Program-made: the position numbers and the translations under genes
Origin: Catajapyx aquilonaris
Lineage: Eukaryota
Direction of reading: 5' to 3'
Assembly (NCBI GenBank): GCA_000934665.2
Contig: KZ538454.1
Span: 62,001-126,000, forward strand
Length of the DNA stretch: 64,000 bases
The notes under the pieces: generated by a model
Databases searched by the model: none
Told to the model about the DNA's origin: nothing
Seen by the model: the letters and a program-made list of their open reading frames with translations, nothing else
Shown here: positions 11,672-58,700 of the stretch, one piece after another
How the letters are laid out: every line of letters starts with the position of its first letter
How positions within the stretch are numbered: the first letter of the stretch is position 1

Positions 11672-11739
11672 AACTGACAATCAACCAGCTGAGAGAGAGG
11701 CTCCAACAGTATGAAGATGAGATAGAAGAAGCGTTACAG
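11672..11739 (+). CDS. CUX1: Internal coding exon of a cut/CUX1 (CASP) family gene, N-terminal coiled coil: (E)LTINQLRERLQQYEDEIEEALQ
   Basis: Acceptor ttctctctatttgcAG (11670-71) and donor CAG|GTAAGA (11740). Length 68 nt, phase 1 to phase 0. The peptide aligns by eye with human CUX1/CASP [23 protein letters not shown] (recalled) and splices in frame to the next exon. Confidence 0.88.
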
Positions 11740-17241: not shown

Positions 17242-17374
17242 ACAAGGAGCCGAGAAGTACAGTCGGAGTTGCTGTCCCGATTCGCGGAGAAAGAGCGAGA
17301 CCTACACCAGGAGCAAGTGGCTGTCTCGCACCAGTTGGCCGAAGCGGAGAAGAAGATTGTCGCCCTGCAAAGTG
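17242..17374 (+). CDS. CUX1: Internal coding exon of cut/CUX1 (CASP): TRSREVQSELLSRFAEKERDLHQEQVAVSHQLAEAEKKIVALQS(A)
   Basis: Acceptor tccttgttcgttgtttcAG and donor G|GTAAGG (17375). Length 133 nt, phase 0 to phase 1. Matches the recalled human CUX1 segment [35 protein letters not shown] (FAEKER, L.EAE.K, LQ.A). Confidence 0.93.
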
Positions 17375-17709: not shown

Positions 17710-17779
17710 CCTTGGACCAATGCCAGTCCGAACTCTTTGAGCTGAAATCAAAATGTGAAGAGGAGTCTCCACAAGCCAA
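17710..17779 (+). CDS. CUX1: Internal coding exon of cut/CUX1 (CASP): (A)LDQCQSELFELKSKCEEESPQA(K)
   Basis: Acceptor ttttcggctttattcgcAG and donor AA|GTGAGT (17780). Length 70 nt, phase 1 to phase 2. Matches recalled human [23 protein letters not shown]. Confidence 0.92.
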
Positions 17780-21830: not shown

Positions 21831-21897
21831 GTCAGATGAAAGTGAGCCCGTCACCAGCAGTGATCAGCAAGAGCAGCAGCAGGAGAGCAGCAGTAAG
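21831..21897 (+). CDS. CUX1: Internal coding exon of cut/CUX1, diverged: (K)SDESEPVTSSDQQEQQQESSSK
   Basis: Acceptor acttttttctatatgtgcAG and donor AAG|GTAAGC (21898). Length 67 nt, phase 2 to phase 0. Its first base completes the AA|G Lys codon from the previous exon and gives K-S-D-E (human K-A-D-E); the rest is low-complexity. Confidence 0.75.
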
Positions 21898-24800
21898 GTA
21901 AGCCTCACCTGTAGTCTTATATCTCGATTTTTGTGTAAGGCCGTCAATCTGTTGTTGGACACCTTGAAAGGTTGGAGGTTGCGTGCTTAGATGGAAGTGA
22001 ATATGGACGAGTCGGCTTTAGGCCCCTGTCAACGTCTCTTCAAACTGCACTCGTAATCCCGAATCAGCGTGTTGCCTGCAACATTCAAAGTAATGCTCGA
22101 TCACTGACACTATCGCCATCACTTAGGTCTCAAGCCTTTGGAAAGATGAAAAAAAAAAAATGTAGGCATTTTTTTTTTTCAATTGGTCAGGCGGTGTCAT
22201 AACACGGAATGCGGCTTTTAATAATTTGGAGGTTAATTTTGGGGTTGTACTATAGAATTTATGAATATTACCAGGGCTATTGCTAAAATTATCCTGCCAA
22301 TATATCCTTCGCTTGACAAAGTGTGTGACAATTAACGTGAAACCAATGTTGGCGCCCATATTATCGGTTATGGTATTCACTAAGTGCTAATATAGTACCC
22401 ATACTATGGCACAAAAGCTTTTCGTATTTTGCCAATTTTGTCGCTTTTGACCGTTAGTTACATTATATCGAAGCGCAAAAAAAATTGTCCATCGTCGATA
22501 ATGCAATGAATCACTAGGACTGTGCAAATTGATGTTACAGTGGAATTACCTTCTAAGGGTAATAGGCTATTTTAGCCACATCCGGCTCAATTTTATTTTA
22601 TATATGTATTATTAGGCAAGGCGATATGAGAGATAAGTGGTTACGCCACTAAGCATATTCGTGGCGTCATGGCCTATATATCGCAGAAGGAAATTATGCC
22701 TCTTGCTATTAGTGAGTTGACGAAGAACGCTACACTGTCCAATAAAGCCATAGGACTAATTATTGCTGTAATTGGCTAATTGAGGCAGCGCTTCGCAGAA
22801 GGCAAGCATGTTAGAGGAAAGGAGGAGGAGGGGGGGGGGGTCTTGTGATAAGCCTCTCTCTTTTTTAAAAAACCAAGCCCTCGACGTAATTGGAGTCGGA
22901 TGACGCAAATTGACCGCAGAGAAATGACGAATCAGTGTCGATTATCTAGGAGGACTATTTATATGGGGGTGTATTTATCCTCAGGTGGAATTGCGTGATT
23001 TATCCAGGAACTGTGTATCCCCTCGGCTTTTCCAGGCCCCCTTTTGATGCGCTTCCTACTTCCACGTCCCCATGCCCTCGGGCCTCCGGGGGTTAATCAC
23101 CCATTCGCACACATACCCCCCCACACACACACACGGTCGAGTATATACACTGAGCAGAAGCCGCCTACTTTACAGTAATTAAAAATAAAAATAAAAACCG
23201 CTTCCAGGGATGCTAACATGGCGTCTGGAGTTTTGACTGACAGCGTCACATGCTGGGCACCACTCAATTTGGAGTACGTTGCGAGGAACGCTATACACTA
23301 CAACAGGACTGTGGAAAAAAAACTATTGGAATTTCTAGGGAGTAGTGTGACTCGTATGGTGTCATTTTTTAAAATAGAGTATGACTGGGAGTTGGGAAAG
23401 TGTTATTTATTGTTTTGCAGCATGCGTGCGGTAGGTGCTGATTCACACTTTTTTGGCCAAGCATGCAAACACGGGAGGGGAACGGTTTATAAATAAAAAA
23501 CATAGAACACTCTCGGGTGATCCTTATCAGGTCAACAATCGCTAAAAATTTTGAAAGGTTTTTTAAAAAAATTTCGGTGAGTCCGCTTGGGGGCGCTATA
23601 ACTATTGACGAGCCATCTTGTGGCGACATACAGTCACCTGGGGAAGCCTTGTAATTCCGGCTCGTGCTCGTATGATCCCAGCCCGTACAGAAACAATCAT
23701 CTCAAGTTTCCTCCCCGGAATCCTCGCTTCTCCAACCTCCCCATCCCCCCACCTCTCCCCACTCCCTATCTCTCCCTCTCTCTTCTCAGTTCACCGTTAT
23801 TTATGAAGACAGAGTAATCATTGACGCTTGGCCTACACAAATTAAGGGCTTCATAGACTAATTATTTACTTATCTGCACTCGCGAAGAGACTTGTCCTGG
23901 AAAGGAAAGGAGGAAGACTGTTGCGGGAGCCGGGGAGGGTGGGAGGGGGAAGGAGAAGGGTTCAAGAAAGGAGATGTTGCGAAAGTGTGAGCTAACTAAG
24001 CGTGAAGGCATAAGATTTGCCTTGTTGTTTTATGCCTTTCTGTTTGTTTATTGCCGAATAGAGGAGGGGGGGGGGGGGGGAAATTGTGCAATTTTTACTT
24101 AATTTGTTTGGTATTCTGAATATTTTTTAAGATACTTTTTACGTAGCCTAATGGTCAGCGTTCATACTGGTCATATGAAAATTTGACACCTGCCTTTGTA
24201 AAACATGGGGGTTTGCCCCCGTGGGTCCCAAACGCATGGGAGCCCGCATGAGCAGTTCATGATTTACGGATGAAGCAAATCCGATTATTAACGCACAACT
24301 CGCTGCCGACAGGTAGAATAGAAAGAATATGGACCAGTGTTTGGTCAGCATCTGTGCTGCAAGCTGAAAATATTTTTAAAAGGGTGCTCCATACATAAAA
24401 AGTAGCACATACTGTACATTGTTGAGGATTGGAATGCAATAATTTGAATGGGCCCTATTTCCTGTTGACCCGTCGGAGCCTCTCTTCATGGCGGATGATT
24501 TGATGATGATGATGTCGGTCGGCGGATGGGCGGGGACGCTTTTCTTCTGACGCGACTTGTGGAGTCACGCAAGTTATGATTATATTGGTGCGTTGGTGAT
24601 GCCAGCTGGCGGAAATGGCTCGTATTTTTCAAGACTGCTTGTTCGACTGGGGGGTAGATTATGTGTAAAAAAGGGCCATCCCACTAGCGACCTTCCCACG
24701 TACTAGACATGGGATGTGTCACGACATTAAATAAACACGCATGAAATAGGCCGATGATGATAAATTCGATTAAATTGATAAATGAGCCACAGGGTGATGT

Positions 24801-31709: not shown

Positions 31710-34317
31710 GTTTGCACGTCCGTGATTGGCACGCTTTGTGAGCTTTGCGTGTCCCTCTAGGTCTCTTACACAACAATGGCTGAACAGATTGGCAGCTTTC
31801 TATCGAATCTCCCTCCCCTTTTTAGGGGTATAATTAGACCACAACCGATTCCAATTATTGTGTAATTACCTCCGGGTCTTGTACACCCTCCTATATGTCT
31901 TCTTTTTATCGCTTGAACTACCTCATACACGTGGATGGTGAGGGCAATGATTTCAATCATATTTGCAGATTAGGGCTACATTATTTCCGTGTGTTGGATC
32001 GGAAGCATGCAGTGGAGCAAAAGAGTTGGAATAAGCCAAGCCTGGAAAGAGCTGCGAGAGAGCTTTTTAGGTGGTGGTTGGGGGGGGGGGGGGNNNNNNN
32101 NNNNGGGGGGGGGGGGTGCTCCCCGGAAATAATAAATAGATTGCCGGATGCAAAAGTTGGGCGGATGGATCCCCCCGGATCCTCCGGGGAGCGACGGTAG
32201 TAGGAAGACGGCCTGGGTAATTGCATCACGGACTCTTTTTAATTTTTTAAGAAATCGTAATGAGTTGATGCAGGAGGATTCTTTGATCCCGCCTAATTTC
32301 AATGGCGGTGCGATAACTCGGGCAGGGCCACAAGTGCAAGAGGAAGCCACTTTGCAACTCTTTGCCAATATATTTTAACGAATATTTTTATAGGGGAGGA
32401 GGCTCTTTGGGAAAAAATAACTCTTTAGGCTCCAATTAGAAAAGGCCCGGGGCTTCCATCATTTTGCCATCAGACTCTACCATCATATAAAGTGGACCCC
32501 CCAAAAACTCTCTTTCCCGCTCTTTTTTTTAATGATTTATTAAACAGAAGAGAACGAGCCAGGTAGCAGAGATGCATCCTGGGTAATTAGACCAGCAAGC
32601 TCCTAATGGCTCCAAATGGATTGACTGGGGATCGGGCTCGGTTCCAGCATGGGTTGGGCTTTACTCGTATGGATGTAACCTACCTACTTTGGGCTTTGGA
32701 AACCCACGGGTAGAGTAATTGCATAGCCATATGCTGGGGGTAATGCAATAACATGGTACAGGGAAGAAACGGCCCAAGGCACTAGCAGCACGCTTGTTCC
32801 TTCCTTTTTAGAACCATTTTGTTTGGGTGAACAGGTCCAACTGGTTAATTTGTAGGCGGGTTTGTAAAGGTGGCTGCCAGACAAGGCGATGGGAAACCTA
32901 GATAAACACCTTCTTCCTTATTGACCCTATTTCAATTAGGGATGCTCCTGGCCACTGATTTGTCAACTCGAATTTTCTCGTGTTGTTTTTTGTGTGTAAA
33001 ATAGGTTCAGAAAGTTGTAAATGGCGTTTGCTGGAGCAACTAATTCGATCCGGGATCTTAGCCAACACGAGCATCATCAATGGAACAGATCTTATCTGGA
33101 AGCCTAATGGAGGCCAAATCTCTTCCCTGCGCCTCCGTTTTCCCTCCACCCCTTATGACAATTTCCCATCGATCCCTATCGCCTGGATCACATTTCTGTG
33201 CCAGGCCATTAGATGCTCCCAAGAGGATTTTGCTCCCCCAGCTTCTTCCAAGAGCAGCATCCCCATTCGGCCCTTTTATTGCTTCTAATAGCCTATGGCT
33301 CGAAGTCTGGGACATTTGTTTGCACCTTGCCAAACAGGTTTGAAGGCTTCGGCATTTGTTTCAAGACCCCCCCACTTCCCCCCCCCCCCCCCCNNCCCCC
33401 CCCCCCCCCTTCAGTCCAGTATAGGTTTCCAACCTTGGAACAGACAAAAACCGGTTAGAATTATCCGAATTTCTTAATTGATTATTGTGTGAATCACATT
33501 ATCCATTATATGGCGTCACTCCCTGCATCATAATTATCTTCCAAGCCGCATTCTTGCCAATAAGCACGTGAAAGGCAAAGAGTGTATAAGGGTCTTGGAG
33601 TCTGACATGTGAACGTGTGTGACTTGTGCTAAGTCGCCTTTCGGGCTGGCTCACAGCATTCCAAAGACCAAGCTCAATCAGTCTTTTAGCAAGAGAAGGG
33701 AAATTGTGACTTTATTTATATGTCCTCTACACCTGTCGTAAATTTGTCTACACGGAACTCCACTTTAGGTAATGCTATTGAGCTTCGATAAAAACCGGCC
33801 GCCAGCATATTGGTCCTTTTAGAAAGCCCGATTTTTCTGGCCAACTTGTGCGCACATACACATGTATGCGTGATCAGCACACGCTGCCAACTCGGAGCCC
33901 ACCCAACCATAGCTGTCTGTGGATTAGTCAAAAAAAACTGGAAGAAAAAACATTAGGGGAGGCATAGACAATATTATCCTGGCGAAGACGGCAACCCGCA
34001 TGACTTGCATGTATAGCTGGGCGGTATAGGGTTTTGACGGACTCGTCGAATCCCGTAGAATCGAATAGTCGATGGGACGGCGACGGCGCCAATGGAACGG
34101 ATCCTCCCACGAAGTTTGGCTTGCCGAAGCTGCGCCAATACCCAATCGGGGGGGTTGGTAAAGGGGTGGCGGCTCCCAAAAACGGCTTCTTCCAGCTCGA
34201 TATCAGAAGGAAGTGGGAGGGCAGAAAGGTAAGGACTCCCGGATGATACCCCCCCACAAACTGTTCGATCCAATATTGCCTATAACACCAGCCAACTCGC
34301 TCGCGAAATCCGATCAA

Positions 34318-50666: not shown

Positions 50667-50893
50667 NNNNNNNNNNNNNNNNNNNNNNNNNNNNNNNNNN
50701 NNNNNNNNNNNNNNNNNNNNNNNNNNNNNNNNNNNNNNNNNNNNNNNNNNNNNNNNNNNNNNNNNNNNNNNNNNNNNNNNNNNNNNNNNNNNNNNNNNNN
50801 NNNNNNNNNNNNNNNNNNNNNNNNNNNNNNNNNNNNNNNNNNNNNNNNNNNNNNNNNNNNNNNNNNNNNNNNNNNNNNNNNNNNNNNNNNNNN
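50667..50893. other. Assembly gap (N run) between a poly-C run and a (GA)n run
   Basis: 227 consecutive N bases. Confidence 0.98.

Positions 50894-54190: not shown

Positions 54191-54262
<72 letters not shown>
54191..54262. repeat. (AAT)24 microsatellite
   Basis: 72 bp of perfect AAT repeat. Confidence 0.98.
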
Positions 54263-54263
<1 letters not shown>

Positions 54264-54457
54264 CTTAAAATGAGCAGGTCAAAAGGTGATGGCCAACATT
54301 TCAGTTGGAACACCTTGTAGGCCTTCATGGCATAATATTTCGCATTTGCAATGACTCATAACACGCTCAATCAAATAGTGGGTATGGTTGGCATACATCA
54401 TGTGTACTGTACGTGTACAGAAGCAGGTGTAAGTTAAATTTGAATGTTATGCATACG

Positions 54458-54528
54458 TACTAACACTGTATTTTATATTTCTAGGTGAGTACACCAGATT
54501 TTGTAACCCATCTGTGATGGCAGTAAGT
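54458..54528 (+). other. Candidate recursive splice site (ratchet point) with a 38-nt cryptic RS-exon in the long cut/CUX1 intron
   Basis: TACTAAC at 54458-54464, then an AG-free tract actgtattttatatttct, AG at 54483-84 directly followed by GTGAGT (54485-90), and a second donor GTAAGT at 54523-28. Same strand as the gene. Confidence 0.7.
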
Positions 54529-55519
54529 ACACATTTTTTACTTGTTATTTTGCATGGCATCGACTGTCACTTACACAATGTGGGCGGCAATTTCAAATGA
54601 TGTAAAATCGAAAATTCATTTTTATAATTGCATAATTGGATTTTTAAAACAATATTTGCCAAATATTTCGACTAGCCCTGATGGACCCACAGTAAGGAGT
54701 CCAAAAGTGCTATCCTGTAGACCTCAACTGGCAGATGAGAATGCGTGTAGTGCGGATTAGTTGAGTTATTTGTAGGGAGACTCCAGAAGTGACAAAAAGT
54801 GGGGAAGGCGGGGAGGATTAAAAAGCGGCAAGGTTGACGTGAGCAAGGGGTGGAAGGAGGGGAAAGGGGGGGAGATGACAATTGTTGACATTCGGCTGGG
54901 TAAGCGTTCATTGCACCTGTTATTCAAGGCTAGGGCTCTTTGTCCTCCAGCCAAGGGATTTCTTGAGCGATGATGTTTCTGAAACGGAGCGAAAAGGGCC
55001 AATGTTTTACTATATCTTTTTTTTTGTATATGTGTGTACTGGGTAGCTGGCCTTCTGCATTGGAAGCCACCCCTTGTACCCTCTGGCTTTGTGATGCAGA
55101 TGGCCCCTCTGTTGAGGGAAGGTTTGGCGGATATTGTCTCAAGATTTCCGTTGGTTACACGGCAGGCTTTTTGACGGCAACACTATATCCCGGTACCGGT
55201 TTTGCGTCGTGCGCATTTTTGCATATCGCCCTCTCCGGCCCACGGTGATGGAAAGTTGCGCCCGATCTGTCTCCATCCCACACGATGGATGTTCCTCCCC
55301 AAATGCCTCCCTTGCATGGTAAATAATCATTTCCCGAGCTGTGCTCCGGTCCTGACAATAGATTGCCTTTGCGGATATATCGTGGACCGATTCACTATTG
55401 CGTAGATACTACTATGCCACGCCTGGGATTTTTCTGAAATATTTCCCACGCTGCCACCAGGATGTAACCCTTATTAGTTATTACCAAGCTGAGTTGTTGT
55501 AGATTTTTTTTTAAATATA

Positions 55520-55705
55520 TAGGGTGTTCCATATTCGTGGGTCGTTTTTAAAAAATCTAACTGATATCGTCCGATAGCAGCTTGCTGTGCCCCTAACCAG
55601 TTGCTATAAATGGGGCTCCTAGTTAGGGACATAATAGGCTACAAATAATAAAACTATCGGGAGATATTAGTGACAAAAAACGACCCACGAATTTGAAACA
55701 CCCTG
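55520..55705. mobile_element. Short Tc1/mariner-type MITE (186 bp)
   Basis: TA|tAGGGTGTTCCATATTCGTGGGTCGTTTTT ... AAAAACGACCCACGAATTTGAAACACCCTG|TA. About 30-bp TIR with few mismatches and TA flanks; shares the CAGGGTGT terminus with 1359-1919. Confidence 0.85.
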
Positions 55706-58700
55706 TATTATAAATTCAAAAAGGTTTATAAATTTTCATAATATTCGACGACTCAGAACTTATGTATAATATAATTCTAAAAATAGTTTTTAAAAAAATG
55801 TGGGACTCAAAATGTGAAAATAACGAGCAAATTAGTTTCCAAATTTGAGACTAGAAAATATGCTCATTTCCCCGCATTACTGCCATTTAATTCTTTCCTG
55901 AAAAAAATCCTGGGTTTATGTAACCAACCACTAAGAACAGGCCACACATGCAAAAAATACTCTCTGATTGGCTGCAAATGTGGTCAACCCGAAGCGCCCC
56001 GAGTTCATACGTCTGAATTTGCGGGCCTCTGATGATAATATACCCAGGTAATTATCACAATGGAGTAACCGTGTCTCAAATAATTTCTTGGTAATAGTGG
56101 GGTGTACAGCCTGGGTCCGGAAAGTATTAAAATTTACCGAGCATAATGCGTGTATCAGGATGTTGCGTAATAAGGAGAAGTGACACGGAAGCCCCATTTT
56201 AGCATAATTTTCCCTCGGATAGAAAAAGAGCCCGGTTACAAAATAGTCCCCCCCTCCCATAAATAGGAATAATGTAGTAAAAAGTCGGTAAAATGTAATA
56301 ACGGGGCTATAATTGGTGTTGTTACGCGAGTTAAAGCGTTAACGCGCTTGGTCCAGCATCTGGCGGCATCTGGTGAAGGGCTCAAAGAAGCAAAAATGTT
56401 AGTGCGAAAAGAGGCAGTCAATATGGCCAGGTCCCCAGTTTCCTTTCCATGTTCCTCTTCCGTCGAATAGCGAGAGAGAGAAGCTGCAAATGCGCTATTT
56501 CTCCCCCACCTCCCCCCTCTTCATTCCCTCTCCCCACTGCTCCATCCCCCTCCTCTTGGCGCAGGACATAGCCGACCGGAGGAAATTATCTTTGTCCCGG
56601 AGAGAAGAAAAAGGCATGATTTACACAGGCTGCCTTAATTTCCACAATTAACGTAATGGAAATCATATAATTTGAACTTGTGTTTATGGGGCCCAAAGCC
56701 CCATCCAATTACACGTTCAAAGCGCCGTTAAGTTTCGTTTTTGCTCGTTCGGACGTGGCCATTATAGGGCCTGTAAATAAAGGGACAACAAATTGAATTA
56801 ATTCTGTTTTATTTACCGTATTATTACATTGGGTGAGTACCGCCGTCCCTGCTATTGCTTGTCACAATGGTCGCTTATACAGAGCAGAGCCTGGCGAGCT
56901 CATTGCCGGAGTGCGACGGAATACCAGGGCAATACCATTCCGCTAATCGTCGCATGCAGGGGATATTCTTCTCGCCGGAGTCAAGATGGCATTTGCGCTG
57001 CCGCCGACGATGGGAAGGGGGGTGGGGGGGGGGTTGTGTTCAGCTGAGGGGGGGAGAACCTAATGGACTCTATATGCGAACGCTTTCCGACAATTAGCTC
57101 CTTCCTTTTATACGGCACCAGCATAGGCCAGTTCAGAACCCGGCTCTGAGGGGGTAGGGGGATAGCCCCCCAAAAAGAGAGAAAGAGAGAGCCATGTGTC
57201 CACTATGCATTGGCCTTTACGGCTTGTCGCGTCCCTTGTTTCACACTGGCGCGTCGTAAAAATGTACAAGTCACTACTCAAATTGGGGGAGTGGACATGG
57301 AGGATTTATGTACCTATGATCTGATGTCTGAGATGTGTGGATTTTTGGCAGTTAAATAGCACCAAAGGTTAACCATATTGGCCATAATTATACAGTACAC
57401 AGCAGGTGTAAATGATTTTTTTGACAGTTATTTTACAATTTAAAATTGCAGCGAAATGTTGACGTAATGACTGGGAAGTTTTCAGTTCGCTTGGTAGCAC
57501 TGCCAGGCAGGTACTTATAAATTATGAACGTTAAGTACAGTATTCTCACACGGCTTTTACCGCACACAACTTGGACTTTTCAAATCTTGAAGACTTTTGC
57601 TAATGAAGTGTACAGAGTGTGGAGGAGGAACTAATGTGTTAAAATTTTGTACGTAAATTTGTTAAGCAATGATGTGTCGAATTATTACTTGTTGTAGCTC
57701 CATTCTGTGACTGTCGCTGCTTTTTTTTGGGAAAATAATTTATTTTATTACATAAATAAGGGTTAAGCTAGCAGGTTACCACAGCATGTTCAAATTCTGA
57801 AGAGGTGTCAAAAAATCCGGATATTCCGGTTCAAAAAGAACTTCTATATGATATTCTTCACACTCAGAAGTCAAGTGTTATGAAGATTTAAGTGGATGAT
57901 CCGCAGATAATCCTAGCTTTTACGCTGCCAACAACTGCAACGGCTATTTTTTTGTGTGAGCACAAGGCCATAACAATTTTTATGTTGTTTTCTTGTTACT
58001 TTTAAATTTTTTAATTAGACGCGCATTTTTGGGAATAAATATTGGCATGTAGATAGCAGATTTCATAACTTACTGTAGGCCTACACTTTGAGTCTATGAA
58101 TATAGAGAGCAGGAATTTCGTTCCACAATTTGAGACCACTCATCTGAAAATTAGCAAGAAACATTTTTTTTCATTTCCACTTTCTCTAATTGCATTTATT
58201 ATATTGCCTTCAATGGCGTGCCTTATCAGTTATGGAAATATAATTCACTTTTGCCCTGTACCTTACACAGAAGCATGAACACCCGAGGTCAGTAGATGGT
58301 TGCATCTCATGCCCGACGACCTGTACATAACATGTGCAAAACCATACAGACTGAAAGACGCATGATGTGAAGTAATTTTTTTACCCCAACAATATTTATT
58401 TGGCCGGAAAAGTTCATGTAACCTCTCCTCACAATCTAGTTGCATGCCTCAATTTATTCACTGGCTGTTGTCTTCTGCTTGAATATGAAATATTTTGCAT
58501 TATTGCTGTGCAGTATATACTCCAGCTTTCTTCTGCTAGAGATGAGCAGCATATTGTCACAAAATTATTTCAAGATAATCGCCATATGTTAAAATATATC
58601 CGCCAAAAAATAAAAAATTAGTCACCAATGATAATGTTCAATTAAAACATTCTGGTTCCGCATCGGAGGTGCACGTTAACAAAATCAACTCTTGATCATG

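Follow-up and report, generated by a model that had tools for sequence, protein, structure and literature searches.

We propose that positions 54458-54528 of the window, the 64-kb stretch of DNA analyzed here, form an intronic ratchet point whose cryptic RS-exon, 38 nt long, is normally skipped. The surrounding intron, part of a gene on the + strand, would measure 42-46 kb or more, and we give this reading a probability of about 0.55. A branch-point motif, a T-rich tract with its acceptor, a donor directly abutting that acceptor and a second donor shortly downstream are combined in a composite that lies far above chance expectation, and we regard them together as genuine splice signals.

The module joins a 3' splice site to a donor and a short out-of-frame candidate exon

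The site had been picked out in an earlier note, which described a perfect branch-point motif, a T-rich tract, a TAG acceptor fused to a consensus donor and a second donor behind it. All of these motifs were borne out on the + strand at the positions listed in Table 1. TACTAAC occurs once on the + strand of the window, and this copy is the one inside the module. The acceptor (tttctag) carries T at positions -5, -6 and -7, and the 50 nt upstream of its TAG are free of AG, the nearest one being found inside the GTAAGT hexamer at 54429-54434. One feature speaks against a ratchet point, namely the limited purity of the tract, in which pyrimidines reach only about 70% and A residues intervene. Read in phase 0 from 54485, the 38-nt interval gives ten sense codons (VSTPDFVTHL) and then TGA at 54515-54517, which reproduces the translation with premature stop and frameshift claimed in the earlier note. 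Read in phase 2, it meets a TGA immediately, at 54486-54488.

The module is single-copy within the window, and an origin from a repeat or transposon was rejected on the grounds that no second copy is present there. Neither the exact 20-mer across the junction nor the module written as a gapped pattern gave a match in a metagenome scan. The site had also been described as the only strong AG/GTRAGT (the slash marks the splice junction). This held with respect to strength, the site at 54484 being the only strong one on the + strand, but a second + strand AGGTRAGT exists at 36610. The latter was rejected as a ratchet candidate since it has a GAG acceptor instead of YAG and lacks both a YTRAY branch match and a second donor. 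At 45719 on the + strand, a C-rich pyrimidine tract is followed by CAG/GTATGA without a strong second donor within about 150 nt; this may be another ratchet candidate of lower strength, or it may have no significance.

Two further structures are found in the vicinity. At 54191-54263, 200 nt upstream of the module, lies a microsatellite made up of about 24 perfect AAT repeats. About 1 kb downstream, at 55504-55721, two inverted 46-nt arms that are 80% complementary lie 126 nt apart and could represent a small MITE-like element or a hairpin.

Table 1. Features of the module, the putative intron and the upstream exons. U1 pairing is a crude ViennaRNA duplex estimate with the U1 5' end.
Feature	Position	Strand	U1 pairing (kcal/mol)	Details
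Coiled-coil coding exon (LTINQLRERLQQYEDEIEEALQ)	11672-11739	+		polypyrimidine-CAG acceptor, CAG/GTAAGA donor; ends in phase 0
Coiled-coil coding exon, 44 codons (P0001)	17242-17374	+		tttcag acceptor, G/GTAAGG donor; phase 0 to 1
Coiled-coil coding exon (ALDQCQSELFELKSKCEEESPQAK)	17710-17779	+		tcgcag acceptor, CAA/GTGAGT donor; phase 1 to 2
Putative exon, 67 nt (K-SDESEPVTSSDQQEQQQESSSK)	21831-21897	+	-9.5 (donor)	good acceptor, AAG/GTAAGC donor; phase 2 to 0
Putative intron	21898-64000	+		at least 42 kb (at least 46 kb from 17780); runs off the window; holds the module
Further GTAAGT hexamer	54429-54434	+	-6.4	56 nt upstream of the TAG acceptor
Branch-point motif, perfect TACTAAC	54458-54464	+		branch A at 54463, 21 nt before acceptor G 54484
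T-rich tract and TAG acceptor	54465-54484	+		pyrimidine fraction 0.68-0.71; T-rich part 54465-54481
Ratchet-point donor GTGAGT	54485-54490	+	-12.1 with exon ending 21897; -7.1 with exon ending 17779	abuts TAG, junction 54484/54485; predicted regenerated 5' splice site
Candidate cryptic RS-exon, 38 nt	54485-54522	+		not a multiple of 3
Candidate RS-exon donor CA/GTAAGT	54523-54528	+	-7.0	GT at 54523; would define the 38-nt exon by exon definition
GT sites scored (3484)		+	-10.0	0.5th percentile

The motifs are jointly improbable by chance

The frequency of the motifs was compared with that in 400 simulated order-3 Markov sequences and in 100 dinucleotide shuffles of the window covering both strands. 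AGGTRAGT alone is at chance level, with two copies on the + strand and none on the - strand against 1.2 per strand simulated, and TACTAAC is found three times on both strands together against 4.58 expected. The sole + strand TACTAAC of the window sits 21 nt before one of just two + strand AGGTRAGT sites. A generic ratchet motif, defined as YAG with a pyrimidine fraction of at least 0.65 and at least 20 AG-free nt, is expected 0.0325 times per strand in the Markov simulations. The full module, that is the generic motif together with TACTAAC and a second GTRAGT donor, appeared in 0 of 400 simulations, while TACTAAC-N10-40-YAGGTRAGT was recovered in 0, AGGTRAGT-N20-50-GTRAGT (with the second donor downstream) in 3 and TTNYAGGTRAGT in 11 of the 100 shuffles, small figures that overstate the significance and mark its upper bound because the criteria were set after the site had been seen and the underlying scan was very large. 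As an internal control, the - strand contains no AGGTRAGT and one weaker YAG/GT candidate compared with four on the + strand.

These frequencies bear on whether the module could be a chance pseudo-exon, a fortuitous set of splice-like motifs in long AT-rich non-coding DNA that is never used. Pseudo-exons are common in long introns, which counts towards such an origin, as do the chance-level frequency of AGGTRAGT, the number of TACTAAC copies at or below chance and the post hoc choice of features at a site drawn from a scan of very many windows. Against it stand the improbable joint occurrence of the motifs in simulations and shuffles and the poorer yield of the - strand control. We consider a pseudo-exon distinctly unlikely.

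A third donor-like hexamer allows for an ordinary exon

The GTAAGT at 54429, the GTGAGT at 54485 and the GTAAGT at 54523 together span 94 nt and form the only GTRAGT triple within 150 nt in the window, which holds 22 GTRAGT on the + strand and 17 on the - strand. The first of the three, which does not appear in the earlier note, could be a decoy U1 site, a product of chance or part of another transcript. Together with the TACTAAC branch site and the TAG acceptor, it would delimit a mini-intron of 56 nt with textbook features.

The 38 nt could also be read as an ordinary alternative or cryptic exon, either a rarely included poison or cassette exon of the same gene or an exon belonging to another + strand transcript, for example a lncRNA. 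Such another transcript could use 54429-54484 as the mini-intron. In this reading, the GTGAGT with which the exon begins would be incidental. Acceptor, branch site and downstream donor do make a well-formed exon, and both the short upstream intron and the clustering of three GTRAGT, unique in the window, fit such a reading. An accidental consensus GTRAGT at the very start of an exon is however unlikely, at about 2 in 4096 by composition. In addition, the would-be exon ending at 54428 has no good acceptor before it, Pfam finds nothing in the neighboring ORFs and the known introns of this gene measure 0.3-5.5 kb and not about 56 nt. A coding join of 54200-54428 to 54485-54522 was rejected for want of a convincing open frame: two of the three frames run into stops no more than about 10 codons from the end, and the third stays open over just 35 codons or so. 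Overall, an ordinary exon appears unlikely.

The module lies on the strand of a presumed CUX/CASP homologue

Three exons between 11672 and 17779 encode heptad-like, charged sequence, and the reading frame is continuous across the 11739/17242 and 17374/17710 joins. These exons resemble the N-terminal coiled coil common to human CUX1 and CASP, and the host gene is presumably a CUX/CASP homologue. When the 44-aa exon was compared by phmmer with 1.8 billion representatives, no match was returned, and a word-index search with this exon among longer proteins at E values up to 10 was likewise empty. Pfam analysis of four exon peptides yielded nothing above cut-off and only a sub-threshold KxDL match. 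These null searches are uninformative because the exons are too short for database-wide significance, and since they gave no confirming match the gene name cut/CUX1 is used here as a tentative lead.

The exon ending at 17779 is the last one that we trust. The exon ending at 21897, which the earlier note had used as the starting point of the intron, has good splice sites and is open in the frame left by 17779, but it is a prediction and we know of no counterpart of its product, which is acidic and rich in serine and glutamine. With 67 nt it is not a multiple of 3 and shifts the phase, so that it must be either constitutive or non-productive. This putative exon also begins with GT after its acceptor (gtgcag/GTCAGA), and the donor regenerated there would be weak.

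Motif and composition scans from 17779 to 64 kb found no further coiled-coil-like exon. In 149 ORFs with a minimum length of 85 aa, taken from both strands, Pfam reported nothing above cut-off, including no CUT domain or homeobox, and sub-threshold matches to Forkhead and ThrE_2 were dismissed as chance. Rfam and ARAGORN searches of the window found no RNA families and no tRNAs, respectively. In such a protein the coiled coil makes up just the beginning, and the gene should therefore continue past 64 kb. Position 21898 (or 17780) to 64000 would thus be intronic, with the downstream exon located outside the window. As had been claimed, module and gene share one strand, and the module follows 21897 at a distance of about 32.6 kb, corresponding to 36.7 kb after 17779. 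This linkage depends on correct scaffolding because the sequence separating the exons from the module is interrupted by two assembly gaps, one of 11 N at 32094-32104 and one of 227 N at 50667-50893. The larger gap has a (GA)n/(CT)n repeat at its flanks and is located just 3.6 kb upstream of the module; N also occurs singly or in pairs at 33394, 45329 and 63868.

Base composition is in line with the assigned strand. An excess of G over C and of T over A is associated with the direction of sense-strand transcription, and the putative intron shows both on its + strand (G>C skew +0.044; T>A, AT skew -0.010), which we regard as weak evidence of sense-strand transcription. The G>C skew of the + strand persists over nearly the whole 64 kb, with the cumulative skew rising to 1.29. 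The window has a GC content of about 45% and a CpG observed/expected ratio of 0.77, indicating a genome that is not vertebrate-like. Judged by the fly protein, it is probably not that of Drosophila either, and there is little documentation of recursive splicing for lineages of this kind.

Donor competition would decide the fate of the 38-nt exon

If the module acts as a ratchet point, U2AF and U2 would recognize the TACTAAC branch site, the T-rich tract with its TT and the TAG once the polymerase has moved past 54.5 kb, and U1 on the GTAAGT at 54523 would define the 38-nt exon. The upstream exon, ending at either 21897 or 17779, would then be joined to 54485, releasing an initial lariat of some 33-37 kb with its branch at A54463. 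This junction would recreate a strong 5' splice site, xxG/GTGAGTAC, which would outcompete the donor at 54523 and serve the next step. The 38 nt would leave with the remaining intron and never be found in mRNA.

How strong the recreated donor would be varies with the upstream partner exon, which is uncertain. With the exon ending at 21897, skipping of the RS-exon is predicted because the regenerated donor pairs with U1 at -12.1 kcal/mol compared with -7.0 kcal/mol for the RS-exon donor and the published competition rule favors the former. With the exon ending at 17779, a tie is predicted from values of -7.1 and -7.0 kcal/mol.

This bears directly on the proposal in the earlier note that inclusion of the RS-exon serves as an NMD or truncation switch leaving only the coiled-coil N-terminus. 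Inclusion would bring a stop in both phase 0 and phase 2, and it could be substantial if 17779 provides the partner and the two donors are equal. Expressed RS-exons do exist, for example in Ubx (PMC8605326, excerpts). On the other hand, the same excerpts describe cryptic RS-exons as in general out of frame, little conserved and skipped constitutively, with deleterious effects upon inclusion, and the regenerated donor would be much stronger with partner 21897. For a transcript with so early a stop, degradation would also be a likelier outcome than translation into a truncated protein that is stable. Regulated inclusion is thus unsupported and seems very improbable to us, and under the ratchet-point reading the 38-nt exon with its premature stop would appear in transcripts as an occasional error product and not as a designed switch. 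We are equally doubtful of a broader idea, that stepwise intron removal is an ancient, lineage-spanning property of cut/CUX genes with an RS-exon regulated to tune CUX dosage via NMD. It would be shared by Drosophila cut, where it is published, and the present non-vertebrate gene, which is presumably not fly-like and retains the CASP-type coiled coil; it strikes us as far-fetched.

Comparison with known recursive splice sites

Recursive splicing with RS-exons is well known, recursive splicing of Drosophila cut has already been published, and in vertebrates RS-exons were reportedly described by Sibley and colleagues in 2015. The module represents a further candidate. If used, it would be a recursive site in a developmental regulator of a non-vertebrate, probably non-Drosophila animal, and a case in which the full module (branch site, TT tract, AG/GT and short poison RS-exon) can be recognized from sequence alone. 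For annotation, the 38-nt exon should be flagged and not called coding. Mutations in the GTGAGT would be expected to force the frame-breaking exon into the mRNA.

In the literature surveyed, recursive sites supported by RNA come from Drosophila and from vertebrates (human, mouse and lungfish), and beyond these groups there is one predicted locust site. The mechanism proposed here, in which RS-exon definition is followed by donor competition, is the one set out for vertebrate RS-exons in excerpts of Blazquez et al. (2018; PMC6224609) and Zhang et al. (2018; PMC6110456). This vertebrate work further reports enrichment of a branch-point motif 20-50 nt upstream of vertebrate recursive sites, a zone that includes the distance of 21 nt seen for the branch A of the module. 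Cryptic RS sites of vertebrates are small in number and become credible only when strongly conserved. In humans, intronic AGGT sites are mostly unused and conservation filters discard most candidates (Zhang et al., 2018). CUX1 was not found in the searched supplements of PMC6110456 (part of the files), PMC6224609 and PMC10156609. CUX2 is listed in the PMC6110456 table of RS-site candidates, with 3' splice-site strength and PhastCons scores.

The Drosophila Ubx microexons mI and mII are expressed RS-exons that, as given in excerpts of PMC8605326, are 51 nt long, in frame, deeply conserved and present in mRNA. The module resembles them in having a short exon that starts with donor sequence and in its proposed recursive use. 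In contrast, its exon is 38 nt long, out of frame and carries stops.

In Drosophila cut (FBgn0004198; gene name confirmed in PMC3605059), the 36-kb intron X:7503571-7539811 is recursively spliced, with two high-confidence sites at 7515893 (also in Duff et al.) and 7526792 and a low-confidence site at 7508132 (Pai et al., 2018; PMC6110457, supplementary file 5). Both cases share a long intron, with stepwise removal proposed for the one described here, and the two genes presumably belong to the same family. The sequences of the Drosophila cut sites have nothing in common with the module beyond the generic motif, and they have junction-read support whereas the module is a sequence prediction.

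The closest resemblance in architecture is to the Drosophila ratchet points as a class. According to excerpts of the Duff et al. preprint (10.1101/006163), these are conserved, have an unusually prominent pyrimidine tract and carry TT at -5/-6 in 196 of 197 cases, and they reside in introns of 11.3-132.7 kb from which segments of 2.6-63.6 kb are removed. Excerpts of PMC6110457 add that most fly introns longer than 40 kb have recursive sites. Each fly ratchet point is accompanied by a cryptic RS-exon, about 50 nt in length, whose end is set by a donor further downstream. This exon is constitutively recognized and then skipped since the regenerated donor wins; complete switching to its inclusion has been demonstrated for kuz and Bx, and forced inclusion results in loss-of-function alleles (Joseph and Lai lab; PMC8605326, excerpts). 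The fly set was defined by conservation and RNA intermediates while the module is known here from its sequence, and the pyrimidine tract of the module is less pure than the fly logo. The recursive-splicing architecture put forward in the earlier note nonetheless agrees at the sequence level with ratchet points that have a short cryptic RS-exon, as far as these are described in the excerpts of PMC8605326 and of the Duff preprint (10.1101/006163). Like them, the module combines AG/GTRAGT, a TT dinucleotide at -5/-6 and a branch site a short way upstream, carries a short out-of-frame candidate exon closed by a second donor and lies tens of kb into a putative intron of more than 40 kb. The first segment to be removed, 32.6 or 36.7 kb, would fall inside the fly range quoted from the preprint excerpts, and the regenerated donor would exceed the RS-exon donor in predicted strength, as in the Drosophila type, if the partner exon ends at 21897, but would only tie with it if the partner ends at 17779.
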